Of a stretch of DNA of 64,000 nucleotides, positions 10,043 to 62,823 are shown in pieces. The notes under the pieces were generated by a model, which did not search any database, was not told the DNA's origin, and saw only the letters and a list, made by a program, of their open reading frames with translations. The translations under genes were made by a program, and so were the position numbers. The first letter of the stretch is position 1; every line of letters starts with the position of its first letter. The DNA is from Streptosporangiaceae bacterium (GTDB taxonomy: Bacteria > Actinomycetota > Actinomycetes > Streptosporangiales > Streptosporangiaceae), in assembly GCA_035765195.1 (NCBI GenBank), contig DASTYC010000026.1, positions 170,684 to 234,683 of the forward strand. Reading direction: 5' to 3'.

Positions 10043-10990
10043 TCAGGCGAAGACGATCGTCTTGTTCTGGTGCACGATCACTCGGTCGTCGAGGTGCCAG
10101 GCCACCGCCCTGGCGAGGACCGCACGCTCCACATGCCGGCCCATCCGGCGCAGATCCTCGACCGACTGGCGATGATCGACTCGCACGATGTCCTGCTCGA
10201 TGATCGGCCCGGCGTCCAGTTCGGCGGTCACATAGTGGGCCGTCGCCCCGATCAGTTTCACGCCGCGTTCATGGGCGGCACGGTAGGGGTTCGCGCCCTT
10301 GAAGGCCGGCAGGAAACTGTGATGAATATTGATGATCGGATCGGTGAACTCGGTCAGGAACCCGGGTGAAAGGATCTGCATGTAGCGTGCCAGCACAACG
10401 AGGTCGACCTCGCCGGCGATCAGCTTCAGCTGCGCCTCCTCGGCCGCGGATTTGTTGTCTTTTGTCACCGGGACGTGGTGGAAGGGAATCCCCCAGGACG
10501 TGACCGAGTCTTCGAGATCGCGATGGTTGGAGATCACCATCTTGATATCGGTGTTGAGTTCATCGGAATGGACCCGCCACAGCAGCTCCTGAAGCACATG
10601 ATCCGCCTTCGAGACGAAGATCGCCATGCGCTTCAACTCCCCTGCGCGGGTCATCTTCCAGCGCATGGAAAACGCGTCCGACAGCTCCCCGAAAGCCGTC
10701 CTCATCTCGTCGAAGTGCTCGGTCAGGCCGTCCCGATGGAACTCGATGCGCACAAAGAACGTCCCCCCGAAGGGGTCGGTCGAGTACTGCTGGGATTCGA
10801 GGATGTTGGCGCCGCTCTCGTACAGGAAGCGCGAGACCGCGGCCACGATTCCCGGGCGGTCGGGGCAGGTGATCAACAGCCGCCCTATATCGCGGTAACG
10901 GTCGTCGAACGAGCGTTCCGCCCGTTGACTTCGCAAGCGTCCTGGAGACGCGACATGAGTACGCACGATTACCACTGTGGCCGACGCCAA
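10043..10990 (-). CDS. purU: formyltetrahydrofolate deformylase
   Basis: N-terminal ACT domain ([19 protein letters not shown]) plus formyltransferase domain ([24 protein letters not shown]). The exact start is uncertain (TTG/GTG candidates at 10990-10966). A 48-nt gap separates it from the MetV-like gene. Confidence 0.85.
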
Positions 10991-11237
10991 GTCCCCGAAT
11001 CATCGCCTGCAGACACAAGCCTGTCGGCCGATCTCTTGTGGTCCGGCACAAACGAACGCGGATTTTCGCAGGTGAGCGGGCGGTTCCCGGGTGTCAACCA
11101 AGGATCAGCCGTACCAGATGAGTAACAAGCCGGTTTCAGGGAACTACCAACTAGCCCTCCTGGACTTGTTGTCCAACCCGCCGCGGACGACAATCGGGGG
11201 CAAGGCGTTGGTCGCGGAGGCTCGTTGAGGAGATCGC

Positions 11238-24073: not shown

Positions 24074-24139
24074 GGCTATCTCTCCTATCGTGAATGTCTG
24101 ACGCTATCGGTAGTCGTCGTGGTTATCGAGATTGATCCC

Positions 24140-43287: not shown

Positions 43288-43314
43288 GATCGCCCATCTT
43301 ATTGCCGGATTCGG

Positions 43315-43341
43315 CCACAAACTTTGTGGATGACCACAAAG
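43315..43341. promoter_or_regulatory. perfect 7-1-7 inverted repeat CCACAAA-C-TTTGTGG plus an extra CCACAAAG half-site, 28 bp upstream of the PucR-family start (divergent promoter region)
   Basis: Read directly from the sequence. It is a candidate auto-operator. Confidence 0.5.
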
Positions 43342-43499
43342 AAGACAGATAGCACCATCAGCGTACGTCGGGCCAGGGCCCTCGCGGGGTTTGTGGCCGG
43401 ACACAGGAAGGCGGGCGGGTTGTTTGGGGCATCCGTCGTTGATGTGGGCGCGATGCCGGTGACAGCGTGCGAACAGGTTCCACCTATGGGAGAGCGAAA

Positions 43500-43754
43500 A
43501 TGGGCGCACCTGAGCCATGCCCCCACTGCGGCGCGGTCGGGGCCGGCGTACCCGAGCGGCACGGGCCGCTGGATGCGCTGTACGACGAGGTCGCGCGGAT
43601 CCGTGAGATCGCCGAGCTGCAGGCGGCCGAGCGGGAGACCATCGCGAGCCTCACCCGTGAGGTCCAGATGCTCCGCGAGACCGTGGCCCGTCTGCGCGGC
43701 ACCAACCACCCGGCCGCGGCCCGTCCTCGGCGGGTCCCGTCCCCGGCGGCCTGA
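43500..43754 (+). CDS. small hypothetical protein (84 aa) with CPHC motif and coiled-coil
   Basis: RBS GGAGAGCGAAA before the ATG. Sequence MGAPEPCPHCGAV...EIAELQAAERETIASLTREVQMLRETVARLRG. It is divergent from the PucR gene. Confidence 0.35.
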   Translation: MGAPEPCPHCGAVGAGVPERHGPLDALYDEVARIREIAELQAAERETIASLTREVQMLRETVARLRGTNHPAAARPRRVPSPAA

Positions 43755-48279: not shown

Positions 48280-49425
48280 TCAGGAGGTGTCGGCGGCCAC
48301 GCAGCGCGGGTTGGCGCGCAGGAGCGTGTTGGCGCCGGTTAACGACGCTCTGGACGCCGAGCCGCGCGGACCGTGCGAGGGCACCGAGAACTCGGGCATG
48401 AGCAGCGCGGCGATCGGCAGGGTGGGGGACATGACCGCGTAGGCGGCGGCCGTGCTCAGCGCCAGCGGCGAGCGGTCGCAGCGTTCGATGAGCTCGGTCA
48501 CCGCCGCCGCCTCCGCGGCCACCCGGTGCGGGCCGAGGAGCCGGGCGAGGAACTCGCGGGCGTCGTCGGCCGAGAGGGCGTCGAGTGTGATCGGGCGCGC
48601 CCCATGACTGGCCACCAGGCTGATCAGCCAGTTACGGCTGGTCACGACCACGAGGCAGCCGGCGCTTCCGGGCAGGAGGGGGCACACCTGGGCGGCGTCG
48701 CGGGCGCCGTCGAGCACGATCAGCACCCGCTTGCCCGCCAGCAGGCTGCGGTACAGCGCGGCGCGCGCCTCGAGGCCCGCGGGGATGCGGGCCGCCGGGA
48801 CGTCGAAGGCCTCGAGGAAGCCGAGGATGGCCTCGGCGGGCGACAGCGCCGCGGCGCGGTCCTGGCCGCCGCGCAGGTCCACGTAGAGCTGGCCGTCCGG
48901 GAACCGGTCGCTGACCTGGTGCGCCCAGTGGACGGCCAGGGCGGTCTTGCCGACCCCCCGCGGGCCGCAGATCACCGTCAGCGCCACCGTACGAGGGTCG
49001 TCGTCGAGCAGTGCCGACAGGGCGCGCAGCTCGCGTTCCCGGCCCGAGAAGTGGCGCGGAGCCATCGGGATCTGCCGGGGCAGCACCCGGCCGGCCGACG
49101 CCTCGGCGCAGCGGTCGGCCGGCTCGGCCCCGTCGCCCGTCACGCCCGGAACATCGCAGTTACCGCCATATCGGGTTAAATGGAGCAAATGCGCCACTTC
49201 CCCCTGATTGAGCTTGAGCGCCGCGGCGAGTAGCTGGATGGAACGGGGACGCGGCCGGCGGGTATGGCCTCGCTCGAGGTCGCTGATCGTACGGACGCTC
49301 AGCTCGGAGCGATGCGCGACCTCCTCTTGGGTCAGCCCCATCGCTCTGCGACGGCGGAGGAGGACCTCCCCCGCACCCAGGCCCCAATCGTTGGCGGAGC
49401 CGTTGCCAGAACGTGTCATGCTCAC
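48280..49425 (-). CDS. XRE-family HTH plus NB-ARC-like P-loop NTPase regulator, lacking the C-terminal TPR region typical of this family (truncated form)
   Basis: HTH (LRRRRAMGLTQEEVAHRSELSVRTISDLERG), Walker A GPRGVGKT and a GxP-like motif RSPLAL. The protein ends at 381 aa directly against the ROK gene. Confidence 0.65.
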   Translation of the reverse strand: MSMTRSGNGSANDWGLGAGEVLLRRRRAMGLTQEEVAHRSELSVRTISDLERGHTRRPRPRSIQLLAAALKLNQGEVAHLLHLTRYGGNCDVPGVTGDGAEPADRCAEASAGRVLPRQIPMAPRHFSGRERELRALSALLDDDPRTVALTVICGPRGVGKTALAVHWAHQVSDRFPDGQLYVDLRGGQDRAAALSPAEAILGFLEAFDVPAARIPAGLEARAALYRSLLAGKRVLIVLDGARDAAQVCPLLPGSAGCLVVVTSRNWLISLVASHGARPITLDALSADDAREFLARLLGPHRVAAEAAAVTELIERCDRSPLALSTAAAYAVMSPTLPIAALLMPEFSVPSHGPRGSASRASLTGANTLLRANPRCVAADTS

Positions 49426-50322
49426 TTCTGCCGCCCCATATCAATGTCCCTCGATCGATGCAGGTCAGGTCATTGATCCACATTGTGCGCGGGGTCGCGT
49501 CGCCGGTGGGATCGCTCGCCCGGAGCGCCGACGGGGATTGGCGGGCGAGTCCGGCGCGCCGTTGCGTCATCGGAATTTATTCATTTTCCGCACCTATCAG
49601 TCGCGGGATACGAATGACGGCCATCACTCCGGTATGGGCAATGACAATAGCGCGGGCTCCTTATCAGCGGGCGAAACCCAGCCGTGATCATACAAGAAGA
49701 CTACTCCGGCTGGCGACACGAATTGACTCTTGTGGTCAACGTGAGCGTTCGCCCCTGCCGCGATGCGGGGGCCCGGCCGCCCGGCCGGACGCGCGGTCCC
49801 GTGAAGGGCCGCCGCGGACCGCGGCCGAACGCCCCAAAGGCCCCGCCGGCCACGCGCGTTCTGCCGGAGTTCTTCGGGTTCCTCCGGCCCGCCTCCACCG
49901 CCGCTGATCTGCGCGACCGCGCCCCGGCGGCGCCCGCGAACCGGCATCCGCCCCGGTCATGCGAGGTCACCGGCCCTTCCGATATCGCTGGGCAACGGCG
50001 AATAACTCCGGCCGAACCACATGGACTCGCCAGGGGGTCCTCGGGAACCTGTGATCATGTCAGGGATTTTCCGGGCCGGTTTCGCGCGCACGCCCGAACG
50101 GCACGATCCCGCGGCCGCGCCGCCGTCACGGCTCGATCCGCCGCCCACGGCAACCGCCGCGGCCGGCGCGCCGCCTGGTTCGCCTTGGTCGACTCGGCCG
50201 CCATTTCCCCCTCCGCATTACCGCACGGCGACCTTTTGGGGTGCCCGGGATGCCGCCCGAATATGGCATGAGGCGGCCGCGGCCAATCGGCTGATACAAG
50301 GCACGAGGGCGGAAAAATCCCG

Positions 50323-51306
50323 ATGACCGCGCACCCGATCGACCGTCACCCTCGGGAAACCGCCACAGCCGTCAAGAATTCCCGGCGAAAAGTGGCCGGC
50401 GGACTATTCAGGCTGGCGAAGATCAAGGTATTCCAGCACTATTTCGGCCTGACGTTGGCGTGGCTGATGCTGAGCCCCGGCGCCTTGCACCGCCCGGGGA
50501 CCACCCCCGCGATGTCGCTGTTCCTGCTGGGCTCGGCGGCCATCGTGGCCTGCGCGTGTTCCGCCGACGACATCGCGGGGTTCCGCAACGGCAGCGACGC
50601 CATCAACTACAGAGCGGGCGAGCGGCTGCGGGACATCCGCGCCAAGCCGCTGCTGAGCGGCGCGGTCAGCGAGCGCCAGGCGGTGGTGTTCTCGGTGGCC
50701 GCGGGCGCGATCGCGGTTGCGGCGGGGCTCGCGGCCTTCTGGCAGCTGCGCTGGCAGGCGCCCGTCGCCGCGTACGTGCTGTACCTGGCCGGATTCATCG
50801 TCAGCGTTCAGTATTCGGCCGGACTCAAGATCAGCTATCGCCCCGGCGGCGCCGAGGTGCTGCTGTGCCTGACGACCGCCGCCGGTCTGCTCGCGCCGTT
50901 CGTCGCGGTGAACCGGGGCTGGTCGCCGCCCGCCGTCGTGGCGGCCCTGCTGCTCGGGCTGTGGCTCGTCATGGTGAGCAGCTGCTCCAACGTCAACGAC
51001 GCCGCGGGCGACCGCATGGCCGGCCGCCGGACGCTCGCCGTCGCGGCGAGCCAGACCGCGCTGACCGCGGCCATGGTGGCGTTCTTCGTCGTCTCCGTCG
51101 GGCTCGTTTTCGTGCTGACGGTCAGCGACGCGCGCTGGCCGCCGTGGACGCCGCTCGCGGTGCTGCCGGCGATCGCCGCGCACGCCCGCCAGCTGGCCGC
51201 AGGGCCGGGCCGCGGCCACTGGCTCGAAGCGCGAAGACTCGGGCTGATCGCCTACAACCTGGGCTTTCTCGGCATCGCCGCACCGGCCTACCTCGCGTTC
51301 CACTGA
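50323..51306 (+). CDS. UbiA-superfamily polytopic membrane prenyltransferase-like protein with a non-canonical first Asp-rich motif
   Basis: The DDIAGFRNGSDAINYRAGERLRDIRAKPLLSGAVS region matches the UbiA NDxxDxxxD...RPLPSG block, but the first motif is degenerate. The second motif NVNDAAGDRMAGRRT is present. Multiple TM segments. Confidence 0.7.
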   Translation: MTAHPIDRHPRETATAVKNSRRKVAGGLFRLAKIKVFQHYFGLTLAWLMLSPGALHRPGTTPAMSLFLLGSAAIVACACSADDIAGFRNGSDAINYRAGERLRDIRAKPLLSGAVSERQAVVFSVAAGAIAVAAGLAAFWQLRWQAPVAAYVLYLAGFIVSVQYSAGLKISYRPGGAEVLLCLTTAAGLLAPFVAVNRGWSPPAVVAALLLGLWLVMVSSCSNVNDAAGDRMAGRRTLAVAASQTALTAAMVAFFVVSVGLVFVLTVSDARWPPWTPLAVLPAIAAHARQLAAGPGRGHWLEARRLGLIAYNLGFLGIAAPAYLAFH

Positions 51307-51360
51307 CCACGGAGCGGCATCCCATCTCATCCCGGTCCCCGACACCTTGGACGAAACCAT

Positions 51361-52017
51361 ATGAGCGTCACCACCGAGTGGGCCCTTGACCGCACTCATC
51401 CGTTCCCGGTGCCCCGAGCGGAAGCGCACGTGTGCGCGCCGCCGCTGCCGGGGCGCCGGCTGTGCCGGCCCTGCCTGGCCCGCGGCCGCACGATCCTGCG
51501 GGCGCTTCCCCCGCTGTACGACGACTGCCTCCACGCCCTGAACCCGGTACGACGCGGCCCCATCGTGGAGAAGGTCAGCGGCACCCGGCCGGCGCACTCG
51601 CCCAACGACGCCGCGGTCGAGGCGCGGACGAAGACCCAGGCGGTGCTCGCGTCGTGGGCCCACCTGGTGTCAGACGAGCGCGGGCTGACCACGCGCGGCG
51701 GCGACGTCGGCCACCTCGCCCGGTTCCTGACCGCCCATCTCGACTGGCTGGCCGCCCATCCCGGCGCCGCCGACTTCGTGGCAGAGATCGACGAGTTGCT
51801 CCGCGGCGTCATGCGGGCCGTCGACGCCGGCCCGGCCTCCGAGAGCGAACTCGGCCCGTGCGTCGAGTCCGGATGCGATGGCGTGCTCCTCGCCCGCGGG
51901 GCGGCCGGACGTGGGGGCGGCGCGCCGCAGGTCCGCTGCGACACCGGACGGCACGCGTGGCGCCCCGACCAGTGGCTGTTGCTGCGGCGCCGCCTCGACG
52001 ACCCGGGGCGGGCATGA
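51361..52017 (+). CDS. hypothetical protein with N-terminal Cys cluster (C-x12-C-x2-C ... C)
   Basis: 218-aa ORF. Its stop overlaps (ATGA) the start of the next small HTH gene. Confidence 0.4.
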   Translation: MSVTTEWALDRTHPFPVPRAEAHVCAPPLPGRRLCRPCLARGRTILRALPPLYDDCLHALNPVRRGPIVEKVSGTRPAHSPNDAAVEARTKTQAVLASWAHLVSDERGLTTRGGDVGHLARFLTAHLDWLAAHPGAADFVAEIDELLRGVMRAVDAGPASESELGPCVESGCDGVLLARGAAGRGGGAPQVRCDTGRHAWRPDQWLLLRRRLDDPGRA

Positions 52018-52229
52018 CCGCCGGATCCGCGGGTTCCGGCGTCGCGGGCCGCCGCCCCAGGCGGCGGACGACCGTACCCACCAAGGTCGCCGCCATCGCC
52101 GTGGGCGTGCCCGAGGCGACGATCAGGCAGTGGGCCCGTCGCGGCCGCCTCACCAGGTACGGCACCCCGGGCCGGGCCGAATACGACATCGAGGAGCTCA
52201 CCTCGATAGCCGCGGAGCGCACCCTGTGA
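52014..52229 (+). CDS. small excisionase/MerR-like HTH (HTH_17-type) DNA-binding protein
   Basis: 71 aa with IAVGVPEATIRQWARRGRLTRYGTPGRAEYDIEEL, resembling the Xis-type winged helix. Confidence 0.45.
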   Translation: MTAGSAGSGVAGRRPRRRTTVPTKVAAIAVGVPEATIRQWARRGRLTRYGTPGRAEYDIEELTSIAAERTL

Positions 52230-52290
52230 CCCTGCGCGGGCCCGTGCGGAGCGGTCCCGGCCGCCGCCGTCCTCGCCGCCGGGCCCGGCC

Positions 52291-53394
52291 TCAGTTCTTC
52301 CGATAGGCGACCGCGTGCGCCATCGCGACGAGCTCGGCCCGCCAGGCCGGCTCGATCGGCGCCGCCGCCAGCGCTTGGCGGCCCGCCTCGACGAGCCGGT
52401 CGATGCGCTGCTCGATCTGGTGGGGAACGCCGGCGTCGATCAGTACCTCGCGCAGCTTCGCCGGGTCGCCGCCCGCCCCCAGGACCAGGTCGCGGACGCG
52501 CGAGTCGCGCCGCACGGCCAGGCTCAGCAGCAACGTCATCTTCCGCTGGGCGAGGTCCAGGCCGCCCGGTTTGCCGGTGTCGGCTGCGGCGCCGAAGGCG
52601 TCGATCAGGTCGTCCCGCAGCTGGAACGCCTCACCGAGCGCGTCGCCGAACGCCGCGAAGGCGGGCGCCAGCTCCGCGCGCCCGGCGAGGCCGGCGCCGA
52701 TGACCAGCGGACGATGGATCGTGTAGCGGCCGGATTTCGTGATGGCGATCCACCGGGACAGCTCCGGGTCGGCGGAGCGCTCGGCGGCGACGACCAGGTC
52801 CATGTACTGCCCGATGACCAGCTCCGCGCGCAGCTCCGTCCAGGCCGCCCGGACGGACGGATGCGCGTCCGGCAAGAGCACATCGGACATGAGCACGTCG
52901 GCGTAGATTAACGCCAGGTCGCCGGCGAGGATGGCGACGCCCTCGCCGAATCTGCGCGGCTCGCCCCACCAGCCGTGCCTGGCGTGCTCAGCGGACAGCC
53001 TCGTGTGCAAGGTCGGCGCCCCGCGGCGCCGCGCCGACGCGTCCATCACGTCGTCGTGGATCAGCGCGCAGGTGTGCAGCACCTCCAGCGCGGCGCCGGC
53101 CCCGACGACGCCGTCTGCGGCGGCCGGGTCGCCGCCCGCGGCGAGGTAGCCGGCGATGGCGAACGACGGCCGGACGCGTTTCCCGCCGGAGTCGATCAGC
53201 TCGGACAGCGCCTCGATCGGCACGCCGGCGCGCGCGTCCACCTCGCATCGCAGCGCGCGTTCGGCGGCGAGGAAGTCCCGGATGCGCCGCTCCACGCCGT
53301 CGAGCAGCCGCCGGCGCAGCCGCGCCGCGAAGGTCGCCGGCTCCGCCTCCGGCGGCACTGACAGCGGTCCGGCCGGCACGGCTTCACATCCCAC
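52291..53394 (-). CDS. polyprenyl diphosphate synthase (trans-isoprenyl diphosphate synthase family)
   Basis: FARM LIHDDVMD and SARM FQLRDDLIDAFG. Confidence 0.85.
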   Translation of the reverse strand: MGCEAVPAGPLSVPPEAEPATFAARLRRRLLDGVERRIRDFLAAERALRCEVDARAGVPIEALSELIDSGGKRVRPSFAIAGYLAAGGDPAAADGVVGAGAALEVLHTCALIHDDVMDASARRRGAPTLHTRLSAEHARHGWWGEPRRFGEGVAILAGDLALIYADVLMSDVLLPDAHPSVRAAWTELRAELVIGQYMDLVVAAERSADPELSRWIAITKSGRYTIHRPLVIGAGLAGRAELAPAFAAFGDALGEAFQLRDDLIDAFGAAADTGKPGGLDLAQRKMTLLLSLAVRRDSRVRDLVLGAGGDPAKLREVLIDAGVPHQIEQRIDRLVEAGRQALAAAPIEPAWRAELVAMAHAVAYRKN

Positions 53395-54175
53395 TGGCTG
53401 TCTCCTTCGAAGCTGGGACGGAACTCAGAACCCGCTGCCGCGCCCGGCGGCCGCGGCCCCCGCCGGCCCGGCGGCGCGGCCGCCACGGGGCCGCGCCCTC
53501 CCGCCCGTACTGCCGGTAGAGCGCCACGGTGTAGCACGCGTCCAGCGCGATCACGGTCGCCCCGAGGACCGGGATGACGACGCTGTGCGGGTAGAGCGAG
53601 ACCGACATCACGACGCCGAGGAGGGATCCGGCTCCCTTGCCCACCGCGATGTACATGGACTGGCCCGCCGTCGACCGGCGCCGGCGCAGCATCACCACGA
53701 AGGCCAAACTCATCCAGGCGTTGAGCCCGAGGCCGGTGTAGGCGCCGTAGAAGTCGTTGATCTCGATCTCCACGGCCGCGATGAAGACGGCGCCGAAGAC
53801 GGCGAGCGCGCAAAAGTATCTCCGGAACGCCGCGGCCGGCAGGTCCGGGTAATCCCGCGGCCCGTACCGCAGCACCTGCCGCGCGATGATCAGATCGAGC
53901 AGGAACCACGCGAGGTTGAACGGCCGCTGCCACGAGGCGTGGTTCACGATCAGGGCGTCGTCGAACTCCCAGCCGATGTTGAGCGCGACCGCGACCGCGG
54001 GGATGCCGACGCGCCCGGTCAGCCTGCCCTCCCGGATCGCCAGCAGGTAGGCCGCCAGCCAGCAGCCGCCCACGCTGAGGACGAGGCCCACGTAGTACCA
54101 GCCCGGCAGGTCCCGGGCGCCCTGGGTGATCGGCGCCGCCGACGCGCCGCCGAACAGAGGGGACGGCCACCACAT
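53384..54175 (-). CDS. integral membrane protein of unknown function, translationally coupled to the polyprenyl synthase
   Basis: About 6 predicted TM segments, acidic motifs GWEFDD and EIEINDFYG, and a basic disordered tail. It overlaps the downstream polyprenyl synthase start by about 11 nt. Confidence 0.5.
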   Translation of the reverse strand: MWWPSPLFGGASAAPITQGARDLPGWYYVGLVLSVGGCWLAAYLLAIREGRLTGRVGIPAVAVALNIGWEFDDALIVNHASWQRPFNLAWFLLDLIIARQVLRYGPRDYPDLPAAAFRRYFCALAVFGAVFIAAVEIEINDFYGAYTGLGLNAWMSLAFVVMLRRRRSTAGQSMYIAVGKGAGSLLGVVMSVSLYPHSVVIPVLGATVIALDACYTVALYRQYGREGAAPWRPRRRAGGGRGRRARQRVLSSVPASKETASGM

Positions 54176-54248
54176 CAGCCCGCCTTCCTTTCCGTCGCTC
54201 GCCTTCCGCGTGCCTTTCGTCGGCCGCCGCCGCGGCCGGGCCGCCTGA

Positions 54249-55865
54249 TCACGTCCATCTCCCTGTGCCGCGGCCGGCGTGGACGCCGAGCAGCCGCTCC
54301 CGCAACTCGGCCCGGCGCACCTTCCAGGTGGCGGTCCTGGGGATCTCGTCCCACGGCACGACCCGCGGCTCGGCCAGCGCGGGCAGTCCCTCGGTGGCGC
54401 GCGCCCACTCTTCCGGCTCCAGGCGGTCGTCCCGCATGCACACCACGGGGACCGGCGGGCCGTCGGGCGGCGCGAGCACGATCACCTCGGCGGCGAGGTC
54501 CAGGCGGTCGAGCAGCGTGCTCTCCACCTCGATGCAGCTCGTCCCGGGCACCATGTCCACCTCGCGGTCGACCAGCCGGAACCGCCCAAGGCCCGCGCGC
54601 TCCCCCAGATCTCCCGTGTTCCACCACGGGCCGCTGACCTTGCTCAGGTGGCGTTCGGTCTCGCCCAGATAGGTCAGGCAGCGGGTCTTGGTGCGCACCA
54701 TGATCAGTCCCGGTTCGCCACGACCCCGCGTATGTCCGGTCGCGGGATCGACGATGCGCACCCTGACCAGCGCCGGCCAGCCGATATTCGTCACATCCGG
54801 CCGCGGCCGTACCCGGTCGCGCACACTGCGCCTGGTGAAAACGTTGAAGGTGAACCCCGCGATCTCGGACTGCCCCAGCCCCCATGCCCATACCGGAAGG
54901 CGGCGGCGGGAGACGCCGAGAAACGTGCGCACGGTATGGGGATGCACCGCGTCGAACGTGCTGATGAACCGCTTCACCTGGGCGAACAGCTCGGGTTTGA
55001 GATCGGCGAGCTCGGCCCACCGCTGGAACATGTTCGGCGGCGCCTCGAGCGAGGTCGGCCGGTGGCGCGCCAGCACCTCGGCCACGTTGTCCAGGTCGGG
55101 GCGCGAGATGACGACCATGCCGCGCGGGGCGAGGGTCAGCTGGGACCGGGTCCACGACAGCCCCCGCATGTGCGCGAAGGAGATGGCGCTGGCGACCACG
55201 TCGCCGCGTTTCGAGGTCAGCAGCGGCAGCCGCAATGACTCCAGCCGGTAGGGCAGCCCGCCCAGCGCGGTGAACGCCGAGTGCACCACCAGCTTCGGCA
55301 CGCCGGTCGTCCCCGACGTGTGCGTGACGATCATCGGCTCGTCGTCGCGGCGCACCCGGACCGGCGCCGCCGCGCCGCCGCGCAGGTCGGCGAGCCGCGT
55401 CAGCCCGCTCGCCGCCGCGTCGGGCGGGCCGACGGCGATGAGCGTCACCTCGGGCGCGGCGAGCGGGACCCCGGCGGCCGCCGCGCGGGCGAGCACGCCG
55501 GTGCCGGCCACCAGCACCTTGGGGCCGGCCCGCCCGACCATCGTGCGGAGCGCCTCGATCGAGGCGAGCGGCGCCATCATGACGGGCAGCGCGCCGATCC
55601 GCGCCGCCGCCGCGGCCGTCACCACGACGTCGAAATGGTTGTCCTTGACGATGACGAGCCGATCGTCGTGCCGCAGGCCCGCCGCGTACAGGCAGTCCGA
55701 CAGGTCCCGCACCAGCGCGGCGAGCGCGGCGCCGTCGAGCGTCGTACCGGCGTCCGGCGCGACGTCGAACGGCCGGTCGAGGTGGACGACGGTCTGCCTG
55801 GTCCTGGCGGCGTGCCAGTCGAAGAGCAGGCCGATGTTGATGGGCGCGCCGGTGGGTCGCTGCAT
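54249..55865 (-). CDS. AMP-dependent synthetase/ligase (adenylate-forming enzyme)
   Basis: AMP-binding core motif THTSGTTGVPK and a downstream GWxxTGD-like motif (WWNTGDLG). The long 54249..57344 ORF is the same frame read through upstream. Start chosen at MQRPTGAPIN. Confidence 0.8.
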   Translation of the reverse strand: MQRPTGAPINIGLLFDWHAARTRQTVVHLDRPFDVAPDAGTTLDGAALAALVRDLSDCLYAAGLRHDDRLVIVKDNHFDVVVTAAAAARIGALPVMMAPLASIEALRTMVGRAGPKVLVAGTGVLARAAAAGVPLAAPEVTLIAVGPPDAAASGLTRLADLRGGAAAPVRVRRDDEPMIVTHTSGTTGVPKLVVHSAFTALGGLPYRLESLRLPLLTSKRGDVVASAISFAHMRGLSWTRSQLTLAPRGMVVISRPDLDNVAEVLARHRPTSLEAPPNMFQRWAELADLKPELFAQVKRFISTFDAVHPHTVRTFLGVSRRRLPVWAWGLGQSEIAGFTFNVFTRRSVRDRVRPRPDVTNIGWPALVRVRIVDPATGHTRGRGEPGLIMVRTKTRCLTYLGETERHLSKVSGPWWNTGDLGERAGLGRFRLVDREVDMVPGTSCIEVESTLLDRLDLAAEVIVLAPPDGPPVPVVCMRDDRLEPEEWARATEGLPALAEPRVVPWDEIPRTATWKVRRAELRERLLGVHAGRGTGRWT

Positions 55866-55936
55866 CGAAAATCCTCCATGGAATCCCCGGCCCGCGAGCC
55901 GGGGAAGGCAACCGAATGCGGGCTCTTCGGCCCGGC

Positions 55937-56692
55937 TCACCCCTCGCCGTGCACGACCGCCCGCAGCCGGGCCGTGGCCCGCGCCGGATCCCCGCTGCCG
56001 AACACCCGGCGGCCCACGCACAGCCCCGCCAGTCCGGCGCCGATCACCTTCTTGCCGGCGGCGACGAAGTCGTCCCATGGCCCGTCGGCCTCGCCGCCGG
56101 CGATCACGACCGGCACGGGCACGGCGGCGGCCAGCTCGGCGAGGTACGTCTCGCCGGGATGGGCGGTCTTGACCATGTCGGCGCCGAGTTCGGCCGCCAC
56201 GCGCGCGGCGTGCAGCACGGCCGGTCCCCGCTCCCCGGCCGCCGCCGCGCCGACGTAGCTCATGACGAGCAGCGGAACGCCGAGGCGGTCGCAGCTCGCC
56301 GCGATCCGCCCCAGATCGGCGAGCGCCGGCCGGTCCTCGGCGGGCCCCGCGCCGAGCGTGATGTGCGCCGAGACCGCGTCCGCGCCGAGCGCGAACGCCG
56401 TCTCGGGGTCGCACACCCGGGTCTTGAGCTCCGGCCTGCCGCCGAGCGCGGTGTTGCCCGACAGATGGACGACAAGGGCGGTCGTCCGCTGCACCGGCAT
56501 CTCGCGCGCCGCGGCACCGCGATGCGCCACGATCGCGTCGGCCCCGCCGTCGACGGCCGCCCGCATCGCCGCGGCCATGTTGGCGAGCCCGCCGCCCGGC
56601 CCCGTGGTGACGGAGTGATCGAGCGCGACCAGCAGGCTCCGCCCGTCCGCGCCGAGCAGCCGGCGGAGCCGGCGCTGTTTTCCGCTCACCAT
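55937..56692 (-). CDS. DhnA-type class I aldolase family protein
   Basis: About 252 aa. Pattern LVALDHSVTTGP...AIVAHRG...LVVHLSGNT...DAVSAHITLG...DMVKTAHPG is typical of the DhnA/FbaB-arch aldolase family. Confidence 0.7.
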   Translation of the reverse strand: MVSGKQRRLRRLLGADGRSLLVALDHSVTTGPGGGLANMAAAMRAAVDGGADAIVAHRGAAAREMPVQRTTALVVHLSGNTALGGRPELKTRVCDPETAFALGADAVSAHITLGAGPAEDRPALADLGRIAASCDRLGVPLLVMSYVGAAAAGERGPAVLHAARVAAELGADMVKTAHPGETYLAELAAAVPVPVVIAGGEADGPWDDFVAAGKKVIGAGLAGLCVGRRVFGSGDPARATARLRAVVHGEG

Positions 56693-57078
56693 CTCGACCT
56701 CCGTTTGATGCGTCCGGGCGTACGGCGACGAGCCCCGGCACCGAGGGCGCCGGGGCTGTGGTGTGAGGGGGCCGGGCGTCGGAGGGACGCACGCGAGGAC
56801 TACGAACGACAAACGTCCACGATGCCCCGTCGGTGAACGGGCATGGTGGACGTGCCCAAAGCGTGACACCGCGCAGGCGATCTCCGCCAGCCGCCCCCGG
56901 TGTGATGAGGATCACTGACGGCGGCGGACCGCAGGCCGACACGGGCGATGACCGATGGCCATGAGTGCTCAACGGATGGTTATCGACGTCGACGCGATCT
57001 GCCCGCCCGACCCGGTTTAGGGACAGATCACCCGCGGCAGATTCCCGTCCTAGGACGTGGCTGCCCGAGGAGCGACCC

Positions 57079-57230
57079 ATGAGCCGGGAGCGAGCCCGCC
57101 GAGTGAGCGGAGTGGCCGGCGAGCCCCTGGGCGAGCCGTCCGCGCAGCGAACGAGAAGGGTGAGCGACCCATGAGCATGCGGCAGGCGCACGGCAGGACG
57201 CCCGCTGACGCCGAGCGGGGGGCAACGTGA
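57079..57230 (+). promoter_or_regulatory. two tandem translationally chained uORFs (31 aa and 19 aa), each starting inside a 15-nt perfect direct repeat GAGCGACCCATGAGC (57070-57084 and 57162-57176), leading into the IspH-like gene
   Basis: uORF1 runs from ATG 57079 to TGA 57172-57174. Its stop overlaps uORF2's ATG at 57171. uORF2's TGA at 57228-57230 overlaps the GTG start at 57227 of the IspH-like CDS. All read directly from the sequence. Confidence 0.45.
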
Positions 57231-58549
57231 ACCGCAGCTTAACGCGCGAGTGCTTCGCGACCACCGGAGTGGCGTCCGGTGAGGTGCTGGTGGTGACCGA
57301 ATTCGCGCATCCGGAACGCGGCCCGGTCCGGTGCGCCGCCGCACCGGCCGTGGCCGGCTCGGTGCGCCGCGCCGGCGCGCGGGTGCGGTTCGGCGCCGCG
57401 GCGACCGCCGACGGCCCCGGCACCGGCGGGCCCGCCGTGCTGTTCTTCGCCTCCTACCGCGACCGCACCGGACCCGCGGTCGGTTTCGGCGCGGCGGCGG
57501 CGACCGCGGACGCCGCCGCCATGGCCGCCGCCCGTGCCGCCGTCGCGGAGTGGGCGGCGGTGCTGCGCACCCGCCGGCTGCTGCTCGCCGCCACCGACCC
57601 GGCCTGCGCCGGCGCGCGGCGGGCGCGGGAGCGCGCCGAACGCCTCCTCGGCCGAACCGGCGCCGCCGGCCCCCGTCTGTACGTCTACGGGCGGCTCACC
57701 TGGAACCCGGCGGTCGCGGCGGAACTGGAACGGCGCGGCGCGGTCTTCGTCGCCGGGCTCGACCGCGTGCCCGAGGGGGCCACGCTGCTGCTGCCCGCGC
57801 ACGGGGCGCCCCCGGACGTGCGCGCAGAGGCAGCCGCGCGGCACCTGCGGGTCATCGACGCCACCTGCCCGTTGGCCGCCGCGGCGCACGACGCGACCCG
57901 GGCGTACGCGGCGCGCGGCGACACGATCGCGGTGATCGGGGATCCGGGCCACGCGTCCGCCGCCGCGACCCGCGGCCAGGCACCGGGGCGCACCCTCCAG
58001 GTCCGCGGCGTCGCCGACGTCGCCGCGCTCGACGTCCCCGATCCGCGGCGGCTGTCGTATGTCCTGCAGCCCGGCATGCCCGTCGAGGCGGTGACTCCGA
58101 TCGTGGCGGCGCTGCGTGCCCGTTACCCCGCGCTGCGCGGGCAGCATCCCGATCAGTTCTGCTACGCCGCGTCCGACCGGCTGGCCGCGATCCGCGGCGC
58201 GAGTACGCTCAGCGACCGCACGCTGGTGCTCGGCGGCGCCGACTGCGCCGACTCGCAGCGGCTGCTGGAGGTCGCGGGCGGCGCACGGCTCGTCACCGCC
58301 GCCGGCGACCTCCGTCCCGAGTGGCTCGCCGGGGCGGCGACCGTGACGTTGACCTGCGGGCTGGGAGCCGCTCCCGGGCTGCCGGCCGAGGTCATCGCGA
58401 CGTTGTCCGGGCTCGGCCCGCTCAGTGTCGTCGAGCGGCGCGTCACCAGCGAGGTCGTCGCCGTCCCCGTCGTTCACAGCCCCGGCGGCGGCTCCGGCGG
58501 CGAGGCCGCGCGCCGCCACAGCGTGCCGGCGGCGACGTTGCCGCGATAG
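57227..58549 (+). CDS. divergent IspH/LytB-like [4Fe-4S] protein (HMBPP reductase paralogue with substituted catalytic and substrate-binding residues and Ala-rich insertions)
   Basis: Three cluster-ligand Cys in conserved contexts (ERGPVRCAAAP, IDATCPLAAAAH, DQFCYAASDRLAAI) and strong colinearity with IspH (LDRVPEGATLLLPAHGAPPDV). The HEEVEGT Glu is replaced (GHASAAAT), TT by GM, SxN by ADCADS. Confidence 0.75.
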   Translation: MNRSLTRECFATTGVASGEVLVVTEFAHPERGPVRCAAAPAVAGSVRRAGARVRFGAAATADGPGTGGPAVLFFASYRDRTGPAVGFGAAAATADAAAMAAARAAVAEWAAVLRTRRLLLAATDPACAGARRARERAERLLGRTGAAGPRLYVYGRLTWNPAVAAELERRGAVFVAGLDRVPEGATLLLPAHGAPPDVRAEAAARHLRVIDATCPLAAAAHDATRAYAARGDTIAVIGDPGHASAAATRGQAPGRTLQVRGVADVAALDVPDPRRLSYVLQPGMPVEAVTPIVAALRARYPALRGQHPDQFCYAASDRLAAIRGASTLSDRTLVLGGADCADSQRLLEVAGGARLVTAAGDLRPEWLAGAATVTLTCGLGAAPGLPAEVIATLSGLGPLSVVERRVTSEVVAVPVVHSPGGGSGGEAARRHSVPAATLPR

Positions 58550-59862
58550 GGCCGGATCCGCGCCCGCAAGGTCGCCAGGGCGGCGTCGGCCCGGCCGCAC
58601 CGCAGGTACGGATAGTCGTCGAGAAACCGGTGCCAGGTCTCGACGGCGGCCTCGAGATGGCCGTGATCGAGCTGCAGGCCGGCCAGCCGCGCCAGCGTGA
58701 TCGTCCTGGCCCGGCGTTCGGTGCGCGGCCGATGGCGCAGCGACGAGGTCAGCGCCGCGATGGCCCCGGTCCGGTCGCCGAGGGCCACGAGCATCTCGGC
58801 CCGCTGGTGGTCCAGCGCGGCGCGGTGGTACGCGCCGATCACGTCCGACGTCGAGTCCCTGCGGTCCAGGGCGCGTTCGGCCGCGCGCATGTCGGCGAGC
58901 GCCCCGCGGTCGCCCACGCCGGCCCGTGCCACGGCGAGCTGGCCGAGGAGGAAGGCCCGGGTCGCCGGCCGCGCGGCCCGCGAGCCGCCGGTCACCGCGG
59001 CCTCGGCCAGATGCAGAGCGTGGACGTGGTGACCCAGGTAGTGCGCCTGTACGCTCATCGCCCGCAGCACGACGCCGTAGGCCTGCCGGTCCTCGGCCGC
59101 GGCCGCCAGCCGCAGGGCGATCGCGTAGTAGCGCTGCGCCGCGCCGTGCATGGTGTCGTCGAAGCACATGAAGCCGCACAGGTATGTCAGGTTCGCTGCC
59201 GCGGCGAGCATCCGGCCGTGCGTGGCGGGAGCACCGGCGGGGCGCAGCCGAGGGGCGATGTCGGAGGCCAGATACGCCGCCAGTGCGGACCGCGCGTGTC
59301 CGCCCCCGAAGGCGGCGTCCGCGTCGGAGAAGAAGTTGGCGACCCAGGCGGCGGCCTCCACCTGGCCGGGCCAGTCCGACGGCCCGGTCGCGGCGGCCGC
59401 CGCTTCGACACGGCCCTGCCGCCGGGCGGCCCCTCGTGGCGGCGGCGGCAGGGCCAGCGTGTAGACGGCGCCGCGCAGCTCCGCGCGCCGCGCCGGGTCG
59501 GCGTCCGCGCTGCCCAGCTCGGCCAGCGCCCCCGCGATGTCCGCGGCGGTCGCCGCGACGGGAGCTGTGGTCCAGCGCGCGGCGCCGGAGGCCGGACTCT
59601 CGTCCGGCTCGGCGAGCCCGACGGCGCGGACGGTGATCGGGCGGCCGAGCCTGCGGGAGAACGCCTCGGCGATCAGCTCCGGTACGGGCGAGCGCGGCCT
59701 GACTCCGGCCAGCCAGTGCGCCACCGACGCGCGCGTGTAACGCAGCCGCCGGCCCGACTCGGCGCCGATGGCGTTGACGGCGCGGGCCAGTCCCTGCCCG
59801 GTCCAGCGGGCCTCGGCGAGCAGGGTGCGGAGTCGTTCGTTGGGTTCGCGCTGGGCGGCCAT
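58474..59862 (-). CDS. XRE-family transcriptional regulator with C-terminal TPR-like helical domain
   Basis: N-terminal HTH (LRTLLAEARWTGQGLARAVNAIGAESGRRLRYTRASVAHWLAG) followed by a helical repeat region. Its 3' end overlaps the IspH-like 3' end by 76 nt, convergently. Confidence 0.75.
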   Translation of the reverse strand: MAAQREPNERLRTLLAEARWTGQGLARAVNAIGAESGRRLRYTRASVAHWLAGVRPRSPVPELIAEAFSRRLGRPITVRAVGLAEPDESPASGAARWTTAPVAATAADIAGALAELGSADADPARRAELRGAVYTLALPPPPRGAARRQGRVEAAAAATGPSDWPGQVEAAAWVANFFSDADAAFGGGHARSALAAYLASDIAPRLRPAGAPATHGRMLAAAANLTYLCGFMCFDDTMHGAAQRYYAIALRLAAAAEDRQAYGVVLRAMSVQAHYLGHHVHALHLAEAAVTGGSRAARPATRAFLLGQLAVARAGVGDRGALADMRAAERALDRRDSTSDVIGAYHRAALDHQRAEMLVALGDRTGAIAALTSSLRHRPRTERRARTITLARLAGLQLDHGHLEAAVETWHRFLDDYPYLRCGRADAALATLRARIRPYRGNVAAGTLWRRAASPPEPPPGL

Positions 59863-60254
59863 GATGCTCTCCCCGACCGAAAGCCGCGAAGTCGCATGCC
59901 GCGCTACCGCGTCCGGCCGGCATCACCGGGTGGATTTCCCGGGGCCCACCGCCTGCCACCGTCCCTGGTATGAGTTTGACATCGAGCCGGAGTGTGTAAA
60001 TGGACGCGGCGTCGCCGCCTTGTGGACGCCGGCACCACCCGGGAGGCCCACCGGGCGTCTACAGCGTGTCGGTCCCTCGTTACCGCGGCCGGAGTGCTTG
60101 TGCGCCGGTTCACAAGAATGCGACACGTGTTACACGGTCAACTCCCGTGCCCCTTCCTCTCGGGCGCCTCGGCGGTGCTCACTAAGAGTGCAGGCTGACC
60201 GTGCCCGCTGAAGGGGCGGGCCCGTCCACGAGCCCCGTACGGGGGTGAGAACAC

Positions 60255-61298
60255 TTGACCACCGCCGACCACGGAACCGTCGCCGTGCCGCGCCGTACCG
60301 CGACCGAGGTGCTGGCGCGGGCCCGGACGATGGTCGACCCGGCGCTGCGCGCGGCGATCGGACGACTGCCGGACGAACTGCGCCTGATCGCCGGTTACCA
60401 CTTCGGCTGGCTCGATGAGCGCGGCCGGCCCACCACCGCGGCCGCGGGCAAGGCCGTTCGGCCGGCCTTGGTGCTGCTGTGCGCGGAGGCGGTGGGCGGC
60501 GGCGCCGGCGGCGCGCTCCCTGCGGCCGTGGCGGTCGAGCTGGTGCACAACTTCTCGCTGCTGCACGACGACGTGATGGACCGTGACAGACTGCGCCGGC
60601 ACCGGCCGAGCGTGTGGTCGATCTTCGGCACCGCGAACGCCATCCTGGTCGGCGACGCGCTGCACTCGCTGGCCTTCGAGGAGCTCGCCCGCGGCGGCGA
60701 CGACGGCACCGGAGCCCATCGGCTGAGCGGGGCGCTGCTCAGGCTGGCGCGCGGCCAGTGCGCCGACGTCGGCTTCGAACGGCGCATGGACGTCGGGCCC
60801 GTCGAATGCCTGAACATGGCCCGCGACAAGACGGGGGCGCTGCTGGCCGTCGCCTGCGCGCTCGGCGCCTGGTACGGCGGGGGCGGCGCCGAGCGGATCG
60901 ACGGGCTGTGGCGGTTCGGCATGCATCTCGGGCTGGCCTTCCAGCTCGCCGACGATCTGCTCGGCATCTGGGGCGACCCGCGGATCATCGGCAAGCCCGC
61001 CGGCGCGGACCTGCGGCGCAGGAAGAAGACGCTGCCGGTGGTCGCTGCCCTTGCCCAGCGGCATCCCGCGGCGCGCCGGCTCGCCGCGCTCTACGGAGGG
61101 GACGGGCCGCTGGACGACGGCGCCGTCGCCGCCGCGGCGCGGCTCGTCGAGGAGGCCGGCGGCCGCGCCTGGGCGCGGCGCCGGCTCGCGCGCGAACTGG
61201 CCGCGGCCGGCCGGTCGCTGGCGGCCTGCCGGCCGGGCGCAGCGCCCGCCGCGGCGCTGCTCGCCCTCACCGACCTGGTCGCCCGCCGCGGCCACTAG
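60255..61298 (+). CDS. polyprenyl diphosphate synthase (second copy)
   Basis: FARM LLHDDVMDRD and SARM FQLADDLLGIWG. TTG start after a roughly 370-nt leader. Confidence 0.85.
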   Translation: MTTADHGTVAVPRRTATEVLARARTMVDPALRAAIGRLPDELRLIAGYHFGWLDERGRPTTAAAGKAVRPALVLLCAEAVGGGAGGALPAAVAVELVHNFSLLHDDVMDRDRLRRHRPSVWSIFGTANAILVGDALHSLAFEELARGGDDGTGAHRLSGALLRLARGQCADVGFERRMDVGPVECLNMARDKTGALLAVACALGAWYGGGGAERIDGLWRFGMHLGLAFQLADDLLGIWGDPRIIGKPAGADLRRRKKTLPVVAALAQRHPAARRLAALYGGDGPLDDGAVAAAARLVEEAGGRAWARRRLARELAAAGRSLAACRPGAAPAAALLALTDLVARRGH

Positions 61299-61350
61299 GA
61301 CAGAGCGTGCGGGGCGGACGGCTCCCCACGGCTCCCCACATACTTGGGGC

Positions 61351-62823
61351 ATGGACGATGCCGCCCGCCATCTGCCCGCGCCGTGCCTCGTCGTCCTCGT
61401 CGGACCGGGCGCGTCGGGGAAGTCGACATGGGCGGCGGCGCACTTCGCGGCCGACAGCATCGTCTCCAGCGACCGGCTGCGGGCCCTGGTCGGGGCCGGC
61501 GAGGACGACATCGCCGCGAGCGACGACGCGTTCGCGCTGCTCGACCAGGTGGTCAGGCACCGGATGGGCCGCCGGCTCACCACGGTCATCGACACGCTCG
61601 GGCTCGACCCGGCGCGGCGTTCGGCGTGGCTGGCGCTGGCCAGGGAGCACGACGTGCCGTGCGTCGCGGTCGCCTTCGACACACCGGCCGAGGAGTGCCG
61701 GGCCCGCAACCGCGGCCGGGCCAAGCGCATTCCCGCCGACGCGCTGCGGACCCAGTTGCGCGCCTGGACGCGGGTCCGCGCGTCGCTGCCGGACGAGGGG
61801 TTCGCCGCCGTGATCTCGCCGGAGCCCGTACGGGTCGTGCCGGAGGCGTTCGCGGCGGCGCCACAGGCGGCCAGGCGGCAGCGCGAGCAGCCCACCCGGC
61901 TGCGCTTCGGCCTGCACCTCGCCACATATCCGTGGGGATCGTCGATGGGCGAGCGGCTCAGGGAGATCGCCGCGGCCGCCGAGGACGCGGGCTTCGACGC
62001 CATCTACGTGATGGATCATTTTCGCCAGATACCGCAGATCGGGCAGGCATGGGAGGACTTCCTCGAGTCGTACACGACGCTCGCCTACCTGGCCGCCTGC
62101 ACCGAGCGGGTCCGCCTCGGCGCGCTGGTCACCGGCGTCACGTACCGCAACGTCGCGCACCTGGGCAAGATCGTGGCCACCCTCGACGTGCTGAGCGGCG
62201 GCCGGGCGACCTGCGGGCTCGGCCTCGCCTGGTTCAAGGACGAGCACGTCGCCTACGGCTGGGACTTTCCGCCCGTCACCGCGCGCTACGCGCTGCTGGA
62301 GGACGCGCTGCGGCTGCTGCCCGTGCTGTGGGGGCCGGGCAACCGGGCGTTCGAGGGGCGGGTCCTGTCGGTCCCGGACACGACGTGCTATCCGCGCCCC
62401 CTGCAAGATCACGTGCCGATCGTCGTCGGGGGCGGCGGCGAGCGGCGCACGCTGCGGCTGGCCGCCAGGTACGCCGACGCGGCCAACGTCTTCGGCGACG
62501 CGGCCACCGTGCGGCACAAGGCGGCGGTGCTGCGCGACCACTGCGCGGAGGCGGGCCGGGAGGTCGCGCTCACCCATCTGTCGACCGCGCTGGTGGGGGC
62601 CGACGACGGACAGGTCGCCGATCTCGTCGAGCGGTTGCGGCCCCGGCGGCTCGCCGCCGCCCGCTACGCCGCGGCCGTGCACGCCGGCACCGTCGCCGAC
62701 CACGTGGGCCGCTTCCGCGAGCTCGCCGAGGCCGGCGCCGCCGAGGTCATGATCCGGCTCCCCGATCTCACCGATCCCGCTCCCCTGGAGCGGATGGCCA
62801 AGGTCATCGCCGCCTTCCGCTGA
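61351..62823 (+). CDS. fusion protein: N-terminal P-loop kinase (AAA_33 / PNK-like) domain plus C-terminal LLM-class (luciferase-like) F420/flavin-dependent oxidoreductase
   Basis: Walker A GPGASGKST, then an LLM TIM-barrel pattern (LRFGLHLATYPW...DAIYVMDHF...GLGLAWFKDEH). Confidence 0.8.
   Translation: MDDAARHLPAPCLVVLVGPGASGKSTWAAAHFAADSIVSSDRLRALVGAGEDDIAASDDAFALLDQVVRHRMGRRLTTVIDTLGLDPARRSAWLALAREHDVPCVAVAFDTPAEECRARNRGRAKRIPADALRTQLRAWTRVRASLPDEGFAAVISPEPVRVVPEAFAAAPQAARRQREQPTRLRFGLHLATYPWGSSMGERLREIAAAAEDAGFDAIYVMDHFRQIPQIGQAWEDFLESYTTLAYLAACTERVRLGALVTGVTYRNVAHLGKIVATLDVLSGGRATCGLGLAWFKDEHVAYGWDFPPVTARYALLEDALRLLPVLWGPGNRAFEGRVLSVPDTTCYPRPLQDHVPIVVGGGGERRTLRLAARYADAANVFGDAATVRHKAAVLRDHCAEAGREVALTHLSTALVGADDGQVADLVERLRPRRLAAARYAAAVHAGTVADHVGRFRELAEAGAAEVMIRLPDLTDPAPLERMAKVIAAFR

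Follow-up and report, generated by a model that had tools for sequence, protein, structure and literature searches.

What does a group of prenylation genes make when no classical terpene synthase accompanies it, and where does such a group end? We studied this question for positions 50323-62823 of a 64,000-nucleotide stretch from a Streptosporangiaceae bacterium (assembly GCA_035765195.1, contig DASTYC010000026.1), which we refer to as the window. An earlier reading of this DNA, based on its letters only, had flagged the whole 12.5 kb as one specialised isoprenoid or prenylation cluster. Such a cluster is indeed present, as a UbiA-family prenyltransferase, a polyprenyl diphosphate synthase and a Pyr4-like transmembrane terpene cyclase are co-located within 50323-54175. 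The real unit is smaller than the region flagged, however, and consists of two convergent operons at 50323-56692. With a probability of roughly 60%, we read it as a seven-gene member of an uncharacterised actinobacterial meroterpenoid cluster family from which a GriH-like gene has been deleted, with the four genes that flank it lying outside.

The G+C content of the window is ~72%. As spurious open reading frames (ORFs) abound in high-GC DNA, we chose the frames by the G+C content of the third codon position (GC3) and confirmed them with Pfam and NCBIfam profile searches. All ten genes listed in the sequence-only reading were recovered at their positions. The longest mechanically predicted ORF at 54175-55911 (reverse strand) proved to be an Arg-rich wrong frame and was replaced by an AMP-forming ligase at 54249-55865, which holds the motif TSGTTGVPK. 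An independent Logan assembly (L001) was 100% identical over positions 48881-57099.

The first operon lies on the forward strand and encodes the UbiA prenyltransferase (50323-51306; PF01040, 73 bits), a Cys-rich protein of 218 aa resembling OvmZ (51361-52017; tblastn matches to coding sequences annotated OvmZ) and a 71-aa helix-turn-helix (HTH) protein resembling OvmW (52014-52229; PHROG MerR-like match). The second operon lies on the reverse strand. It starts with a DhnA/DeoC-type class I aldolase (55937-56692; PF01791, 103 bits), followed by the AMP-ligase (PF00501, 137 bits), the Pyr4-like cyclase (53384-54175; PF25129, 55 bits; protein identical to HEU5158572) and a polyprenyl diphosphate synthase, PPS1 (52291-53394; PF00348, 146 bits). 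The statement that the locus has no terpene synthase thus holds for the classical types and fails for the cyclase, which is a non-canonical one. We also found no gene of the methylerythritol phosphate (MEP), menaquinone or carotenoid pathways in the flagged region, in agreement with the sequence-only reading, and the region is syntenic with no characterised locus of primary metabolism for a quinone or lipid.

In order to place these genes in a family we viewed the surroundings of cyclase homologues in GCA_009772515, in three metagenomic contigs and in Streptomyces sp. NBC_01725 and Nocardia sp. NPDC051321. Added to these were 23 loci, about half of them members of the cluster family, that a pattern scan had found in 185,579 species-representative genomes. 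An intact cluster is present, for example, in Streptomyces sp. NBC_01725 (CP109167, ~1,879,321-1,900,064) and in S. camponoticapitis. Gene presence across the loci was scored with a tblastn matrix. The core is shared by 14 independent related loci from Streptomyces, Nocardia, Amycolatopsis and Streptosporangiaceae. The recurring partners are the DeoC/DhnA aldolase, a type-II dehydroquinate synthase (DHQS-II), the AMP-ligase, the Pyr4 cyclase, UbiA and a polyprenyl synthase, and most loci of the family also carry an MMPL transporter and a SigJ-like extracytoplasmic function (ECF) sigma factor. The AMP-ligase is found in all 14 loci (orthologues 58-85% identical), in each case immediately upstream of the cyclase. 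Orthologues of UbiA are 58-74% identical in eight related loci and those of PPS1 57-74% identical in seven (L002, L005, L007, L008, L012, L025 and L026). DHQS-II occurs in 13 of the 14 loci within 10 kb of the cyclase, though not always in the same place: it may follow the cyclase, the MMPL gene or the aldolase. Some members carry genes of isoprenoid supply in addition, namely a complete mevalonate operon in the Nocardia locus, DXS and GcpE in L005 and a canonical IspH in L012 and L026. Clustering the ORFs of 15 loci gave no further conserved family and no oxygenase among them, and a Pfam search of the core in the window gave no epoxidase or P450. We found no description of the cluster family in the literature that we searched.

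One of the recurring partners is missing here. With three orthologues as queries tblastn detected no DHQS-II gene in the whole 64-kb window, and there is no MMPL or SigJ-like sigma factor gene in these 64 kb either. The nearest long relative, locus L007, has a cyclase 81% identical to that of the window, and a blastn comparison showed the two to be collinear save for three indels. At two of these the window has extra sequence, 1.5 kb with a kinase gene fused to an LLM oxidoreductase gene and 1.6 kb with an IspH-like gene, both of which belong to the flanking genes described below. At the third, positions 9176-10423 of L007 (1247 bp) with the DHQS-II gene are reduced to 113 bp in the window (53460-53347), which amounts to a deletion of ~1.1 kb between cyclase and PPS1. 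The junction retains the last codons and the stop of the lost gene (GGGTTCTGA; the L007 sequence is GAGTTCTGA) in a frame other than that of the cyclase, and the ribosome-binding site of PPS1 comes after this remnant. Because the deletion fused the 3' end of the cyclase gene to the remnant, the cyclase has gained a C-terminal tail of ~25 aa unique to the window (its homologues align to residue 231-238 only) and its gene overlaps PPS1 by 11 nt. This overlap is what had been read as a coupling of the membrane protein to the synthase; it exists, as a scar of the gene deletion. DHQS-II directly follows the cyclase in L007 as well as in L010, a second metagenome-assembled genome (MAG) of the Streptosporangiaceae, and the cyclase-synthase junction is reproduced exactly in the Logan assembly. 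We conclude that the ancestor had the gene and that this lineage lost it. The closest relative, L039, is uninformative on the deletion, as its contig stops 72 bp past the cyclase. We also compared the deletion-derived tail to protein P0008, which does not share it.

The remaining genes show no corresponding damage. In pairwise comparisons of the window with L007, L010 or L005, the ratio of nonsynonymous to synonymous substitution rates (dN/dS) was 0.20-0.36 for the aldolase, ligase, cyclase, PPS1 and UbiA genes, the same range as among the relatives that keep DHQS-II. Private changes at otherwise invariant columns were found at 2 of 94 columns for the aldolase, 2 of 154 for the ligase, 1 of 130 for UbiA and none of 38 for the cyclase. 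Judged by these alignments the remaining cluster genes are intact, with no sign of decay. With DHQS-II deleted, the genes in the window no longer suffice for the cluster to make an aromatic acceptor of its own. As the other genes are under the same constraint as in the relatives, the loss either happened recently or is compensated by another part of the genome.

The latter case leads to the alternative that survives best. The cluster might still be fully productive, with an acceptor that comes from a second DHQS-II/GriH copy in another cluster or with a UbiA that accepts an acid of primary metabolism such as 4-hydroxybenzoate, the aldolase then being vestigial. We regard this as possible, at odds clearly shorter than those for any other alternative and still well below even. 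The constraint on the remaining genes has not relaxed, the position of DHQS-II shifts among members and GriH-like genes exist in other Streptosporangiaceae. Furthermore L025 (Streptomyces sp. NPDC058092) has UbiA, ligase, cyclase, MMPL and synthase genes, lacks the aldolase and DHQS-II over 10 kb to both sides, and may be a variant using a different acceptor. Against this stand the proximity of DHQS-II to the cyclase in nearly all relatives and the intact aldolase, which would be unexpected if the enzyme were useless. Moreover none of the DHQS-II homologue accessions looked up comes from the MAG series HEU51585xx and no name shown among the 120 best matches points to the source MAG, although names and accessions cover only a part of that list.

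By analogy with characterised pathways the DhnA-type aldolase is one half of a two-enzyme ring-forming pair, the other half being the lost DHQS-II/GriH-like enzyme. Compared to the archaeal enzyme MJ0400, its best match in the PDB (152 bits), the aldolase keeps the Schiff-base Lys in the motif GADMVKT (GAD(I/M)VKT) as well as the DH motif. Such pairs of a DhnA-type aldolase and a DHQS-II-like enzyme are known in actinomycetes from the pathways to 3-amino-4-hydroxybenzoate (3,4-AHBA), where they are called GriI and GriH, and the pair of this family probably makes the same compound. As both ring enzymes score below all curated equivalog cutoffs, the ring product is not established. The aldolase reached 218 bits with PRK07226, 197 bits with ADH_synth and 147 bits with BagB/FevI (cutoff 500), and the DHQS-II of the relatives (PF01959) 271 bits with the DHQS-II family model and 200 bits with BagC/FevH (cutoff 750).

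The order of these scores is one ground for a second alternative, according to which the pair is of the archaeal type (ADH synthase and DHQ synthase II) and yields dehydroquinate or a shikimate-derived acid. The archaeal models score higher for both enzymes, the best structural match of the aldolase is an archaeal one and NCBI names the partner '3-dehydroquinate synthase II'. However, every one of the scores is under its curated cutoff, in the JGI annotation these proteins are 3-amino-4-hydroxybenzoic acid synthases, and the known occurrence of such pairs in actinomycetes also weighs against it. We consider the archaeal-type product rather unlikely. Two proteins among the homologues appear to be fusions that involve DHQS-II, P0160 (627 aa) with a Pyr4-like cyclase and P0201 (324 aa) with a polyprenyl synthase. 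They agree with a functional connection of the terpenoid steps to ring formation, but could be gene-calling artefacts of overlapping ORFs.

We then compared the terpenoid enzymes to known families. The match of the cyclase to PF25129 covers residues 26-192 and lies well above the gathering cutoff (27 bits), and the same domain was found in all 33 cyclase homologues. We looked for the form of a Pyr4-like cyclase, a compact protein of ~240 aa with seven transmembrane helices, and found it: an AlphaFold2 model built with 11 homologues shows seven long transmembrane helices (pLDDT 81.6, pTM 0.75). Residues E70, D94, D108, D141 and D212 are invariant in an alignment of the 11 homologues with one another, and may include counterparts of the Glu/Asp pair that serves Pyr4 as Bronsted acid. 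A Foldseek search of the model against the PDB gave no significant match. The hits were weak and to seven-helix proteins (KDEL receptor, SWEET, cystinosin); none was a solved Pyr4-type structure. In GCA_009772515 (L008) two paralogous Pyr4-like cyclases (7562-8359 and 10772-11542) flank the MMPL gene. A second family of Pyr4-like cyclases, 37-40% identical, occurs at nine loci of Streptomyces spp. and Streptomonospora alba (L015 and L017-L024). There the cyclase is accompanied by a synthase resembling the second polyprenyl synthase of the window (52-55%) and, in all but L024, by a canonical IspH ~4.9 kb away, and there is no UbiA, ligase, aldolase or DHQS-II.

For UbiA no NCBIfam equivalog was matched; the best model was 4-hydroxybenzoate octaprenyltransferase with 32 bits, and no relative was detectable among solved structures. 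We predict that it prenylates an aromatic acceptor. In PPS1 the residues at positions -5 and -4 before the DDVMD motif are Cys and Ala, and side chains this small argue against a short prenyl product. The AMP-ligase is remote from every solved ligase (at most 68 bits), the nearest being FadD, malonyl-CoA and benzoate-CoA ligases.

The gene identities, the family-wide co-occurrence and the deletion were observed, and from these we infer all of the chemistry. In a first step the aldolase and DHQS-II would form a C7N aromatic acid, most likely 3,4-AHBA, for which PPS1 would provide the prenyl donor. UbiA would prenylate this acid, as UbiA enzymes do 4-hydroxybenzoate, with the chain placed ortho to the hydroxyl group. 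The Pyr4-like cyclase would then protonate and cyclise the chain as proposed for GroF (PMC12105684); we assume direct protonation of an olefin because no epoxidase is conserved in the family. Finally the AMP-ligase, always paired with the cyclase, would activate the carboxylate, and the OvmZ/OvmW-type pair would turn the operons on.

Several observations weigh against the reading of the unit as a meroterpenoid cluster with a deleted GriH-like gene. The aldolase and its partner fall below the curated cutoffs of the GriI/GriH-type models as well as of the archaeal ADH-synthase and DHQS-II models. Unlike most Pyr4-type pathways the family has no conserved oxygenase or epoxidase. Carboxylate activation is a putative role for the AMP-ligase. 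The absence of both ring genes from L025 suggests that acceptor-independent variants may exist. PPS1 is mildly accelerated, with 8 private changes at 134 invariant columns. In addition, the search for DHQS-II covered 64 kb of a 333-kb contig, and a second copy is possible elsewhere in the MAG.

The two small proteins encoded after UbiA had been described as a pair of a Cys-rich and an Xis-like HTH protein. The pair is real and is homologous to OvmZ and OvmW, which makes its members putative activators of the cluster. The 218-aa protein matches no Pfam or NCBIfam model, has 690 representative homologues and is 40% identical (tblastn, E 2e-18) to coding sequences on Streptomyces plasmids annotated as 'OvmZ protein'. 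A tblastn search of phages gave no match, and its PHROG matches are families of unknown function. The start of the OvmW-like gene overlaps the stop of the OvmZ-like gene by 4 nt (ATGA), a sign of translational coupling. Its product matches a MerR-like regulator in PHROG (7.7e-7) and, weakly, HTH_17 and MerR_1, and is the most conserved protein of the cluster with 81-94% identity in relatives and a dN/dS of ~0.1. The pair recurs downstream of UbiA in L002, L007, L012, L013 and L032. We found the same two-gene layout, an OvmZ gene with a gene for a 62-aa HTH protein behind it, in a polyketide synthase (PKS) cluster (L038), and in L008 homologues of both proteins are apparently fused to one protein of 263 aa.

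OvmZ and OvmW are cluster-situated activators that depend on each other and occur widely in the clusters of actinobacteria; the napyradiomycin (NapU1/NapW), endophenazine (EpaI/EpaH) and tylosin (TylU/TylW) clusters have homologues (PMC11264864, PMC8910723). As in the oviedomycin cluster, the first gene of the pair encodes a domainless protein (~210 aa) and the second, translationally coupled to it, an HTH protein (60-80 aa), both within a biosynthetic cluster. The described pairs come mostly from type II PKS clusters, in contrast to the pair in the window, for which the identity to annotated OvmZ is only ~40% and the role is a prediction.

A possible target for regulation lies upstream of the aldolase operon. 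A conserved block of 109 bp (56811-56919) is 79% identical to positions 5598-5704 of L007 and is a candidate operator or promoter region. It contains the perfect palindrome GTGATCCTCATCAC at 56902-56915, the only perfect copy in the window, which is followed by the conserved sequence GTGTCACGCTTTG. The block with its palindrome is kept in L005, L007 and L010 and not in the Streptomyces members. We regard the palindrome as a candidate operator for either the OvmW-like protein or the NsdA-like regulator.

A third alternative concerns the nature of the product. The family might make a lipid of the cell envelope or the respiratory chain, for instance a quinone-like, redox-active prenylated aminophenol, and thus belong to conditional primary metabolism. 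Consistent with this are the MMPL lipid exporters and the SigJ-type sigma factor of most members, the compact gene set without tailoring enzymes, the weak best matches of UbiA to quinone prenyltransferases and the cytochrome c oxidase genes that adjoin the cluster in L008. On the other hand the distribution of the family is patchy, with only about half of the 23 loci from the scan of 185,579 species genomes belonging to it, and some members have dedicated mevalonate or MEP supply genes. Secondary-metabolite clusters are where OvmZ/OvmW pairs typically occur (PMC11264864), and a terpene cyclase is part of no known quinone pathway. We consider a lipid product of this kind unlikely.

The four genes between 57227 and 62823 are neighbours and not conserved members of the cluster. 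They encode an IspH-like Fe-S protein (57227-58549, forward strand; PF02401, 159 bits; protein identical to HEU5158575), an NsdA-family TPR-like regulator (58474-59862, reverse strand; NF053720, 338 bits, cutoff 75), a second polyprenyl synthase resembling IdsB and geranylgeranyl diphosphate synthases (60255-61298, forward strand; PF00348, 193 bits) and an AAA_33 kinase fused to an F420-dependent LLM oxidoreductase (61351-62823, forward strand; PF13671 and PF00296; TIGR03560, 245 bits, cutoff 231). Their presence varies even among the closest relatives. The NsdA regulator stands beside the cluster in L005, L007 and L010 only. The second synthase is found in L007 and L010 and is missing from L005 and from the Streptomyces and Nocardia members. 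Both the regulator and this synthase adjoin the cluster in Streptosporangiaceae relatives only. The kinase-LLM gene accompanies it only in L005 (84%), L007 has neither this gene nor the IspH-like one, and the Streptomyces and Nocardia members have none of the four. The second synthase scores 326 bits with IdsB and nearly passes the model for a 'family 2 encapsulin cargo polyprenyl transferase' (NF041169, 431 bits, cutoff 450); the genes directly beside it are those of the NsdA-type regulator and the kinase-LLM fusion, and neither is an encapsulin shell gene.

The IspH-like protein had been assigned a role in the cluster, which its family does not bear out. It belongs to the fold family of the IspH/LytB reductases of 4-hydroxy-3-methylbut-2-enyl diphosphate (HMBPP) and shares their three [4Fe-4S] cysteines: in Escherichia coli numbering C12, C96 and C197 are kept, together with H74 and H124. 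In contrast to those enzymes it has lost substrate-binding and proton-relay residues, is extended at the N-terminus and comes from a family with a non-isoprenoid context elsewhere. The catalytic or substrate-binding residues replaced are H41 (by W in the MAFFT and by T in the HMMER alignment), E126 (by S), T167/T168 (P for T167), S225-S226-N227 (by C-A-D) and S269 (by G). The NCBIfam score is 197 (cutoff 444). As 119 of the 120 closest homologues show the same pattern, lacking E126, with the three cysteines kept in all 120, the loss of residues is not decay. The N-terminal extension of 110 aa is also found in 11 divergent homologues seen in full. These paralogues of ~420 aa are widespread in actinobacteria (homologues P0035-P0153; loci L033-L037) and have no terpenoid genes around them. 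Usually the gene stands between those for PAC2 and a MetE-like Meth_synt_2 protein, or faces an NsdA/SP15_N regulator gene head-to-head. The sequences of the paralogues suggest that, despite the database annotation as HMBPP reductase, they probably are not. The window itself carries Meth_synt_2, homocysteine S-methyltransferase/MTHFR and PucR-like regulator genes at 22952-24103 and 40115-43650 (both reverse strand). This gene set matches the surroundings of the paralogue in L033-L035 and hints at a link to methionine and one-carbon metabolism.

A single cluster spanning 50323-62823, with product synthesis involving the second synthase, the kinase-LLM protein and the divergent IspH, is very improbable: the genes are contiguous, other members do carry extra MEP or mevalonate genes including a canonical IspH, and the NsdA regulator and second synthase recur beside the cluster in L007 and L010, but these points are outweighed by the relatives that lack one or more of these genes, the replaced residues of the IspH-like protein and the other context of its family, of which the window holds the typical genes.

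On the other side of the unit, positions 48280-49425 (reverse strand) encode a 381-aa protein with XRE-HTH and NB-ARC domains and without TPR, which is found beside the cluster in L007 with 80% nucleotide identity. The ~900 bp between this gene and UbiA (49430-50320) show no coding signal (GC3 ~0.65) and no similarity to the equivalent spacer of L007. A tRNA scan of the window detected none, and Rfam gave no match at the gathering threshold. A repeat search for island borders returned nothing beyond chance matches in GC-rich sequence and the similarity of the two homologous synthases to each other.

Bacterial Pyr4-like cyclases are barely explored, with a handful characterised by 2026, and from the cluster family this set would gain a new aromatic building block as well as a cyclisation that is independent of epoxides. 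As a tentative conjecture, which we think has a smaller chance of holding than of failing, the intact relatives might define an undescribed class of o-aminophenol (3,4-AHBA-type) meroterpenoids, prenylated by a divergent UbiA, cyclised by a Pyr4-like enzyme without epoxidation, exported by MMPL and switchable by OvmZ/OvmW. The copy in the window, under purifying selection after the loss of its ring synthase, might then be a variant with a new acceptor. The activator pair is of a type shown elsewhere to awaken silent clusters, which makes the family testable in cultured Streptomyces and Nocardia. There are also two lessons for annotation: two genes that look neatly coupled in translation may owe this to a deletion, and an 'IspH' beside terpenoid genes is not necessarily an isoprenoid enzyme.

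We finally compared the cluster to known systems. The eustigmatophyte 'ebo' UbiA cluster consists of unrelated enzymes and was set aside. The gromomycin cluster shares a Pyr4-like cyclase (GroF), a polyprenyl chain that is not epoxidised, direct protonation and a compact core (PMC12105684). It was rejected as a match, as its product has a guanidine head group and it encodes Rieske oxygenases, a PAP2 phosphatase and a P450, and no UbiA, aldolase or AMP-ligase (PMC12105684). With GriI/GriH (grixazone) and BagB/BagC (bagremycin/ferroverdin) the relatives share the two ring-forming enzyme families side by side, whereas the window has the aldolase only. The scores are far below the BagB/FevI and BagC/FevH cutoffs and orthology by this measure does not follow. 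The products known to derive from 3,4-AHBA are compounds such as phenoxazinones and manumycins, and not UbiA-prenylated, cyclised terpenoids. Closest in logic are the meroterpenoid pathways with UbiA and a Pyr4-type cyclase to zigralone (zig), tolypodiol (TylF) and xiamycin (XiaH), most examples of which come from Actinomycetota (PMC13307353). Unlike those pathways the family has no conserved P450 or epoxidase, and its acceptor would come from the aldolase/DHQS-II pair instead of being an indole, a quinolone or 4-hydroxybenzoate. It also has a conserved AMP-ligase next to the cyclase and, in most members, the MMPL and SigJ-like genes. In the window the acceptor route is incomplete, with the aldolase left and the ring gene deleted. 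The cluster thus follows the known UbiA and Pyr4 logic, the acceptor pathway, the pairing of ligase and cyclase and the MMPL/sigma factor module set its family apart, and the copy studied here is a truncated one.

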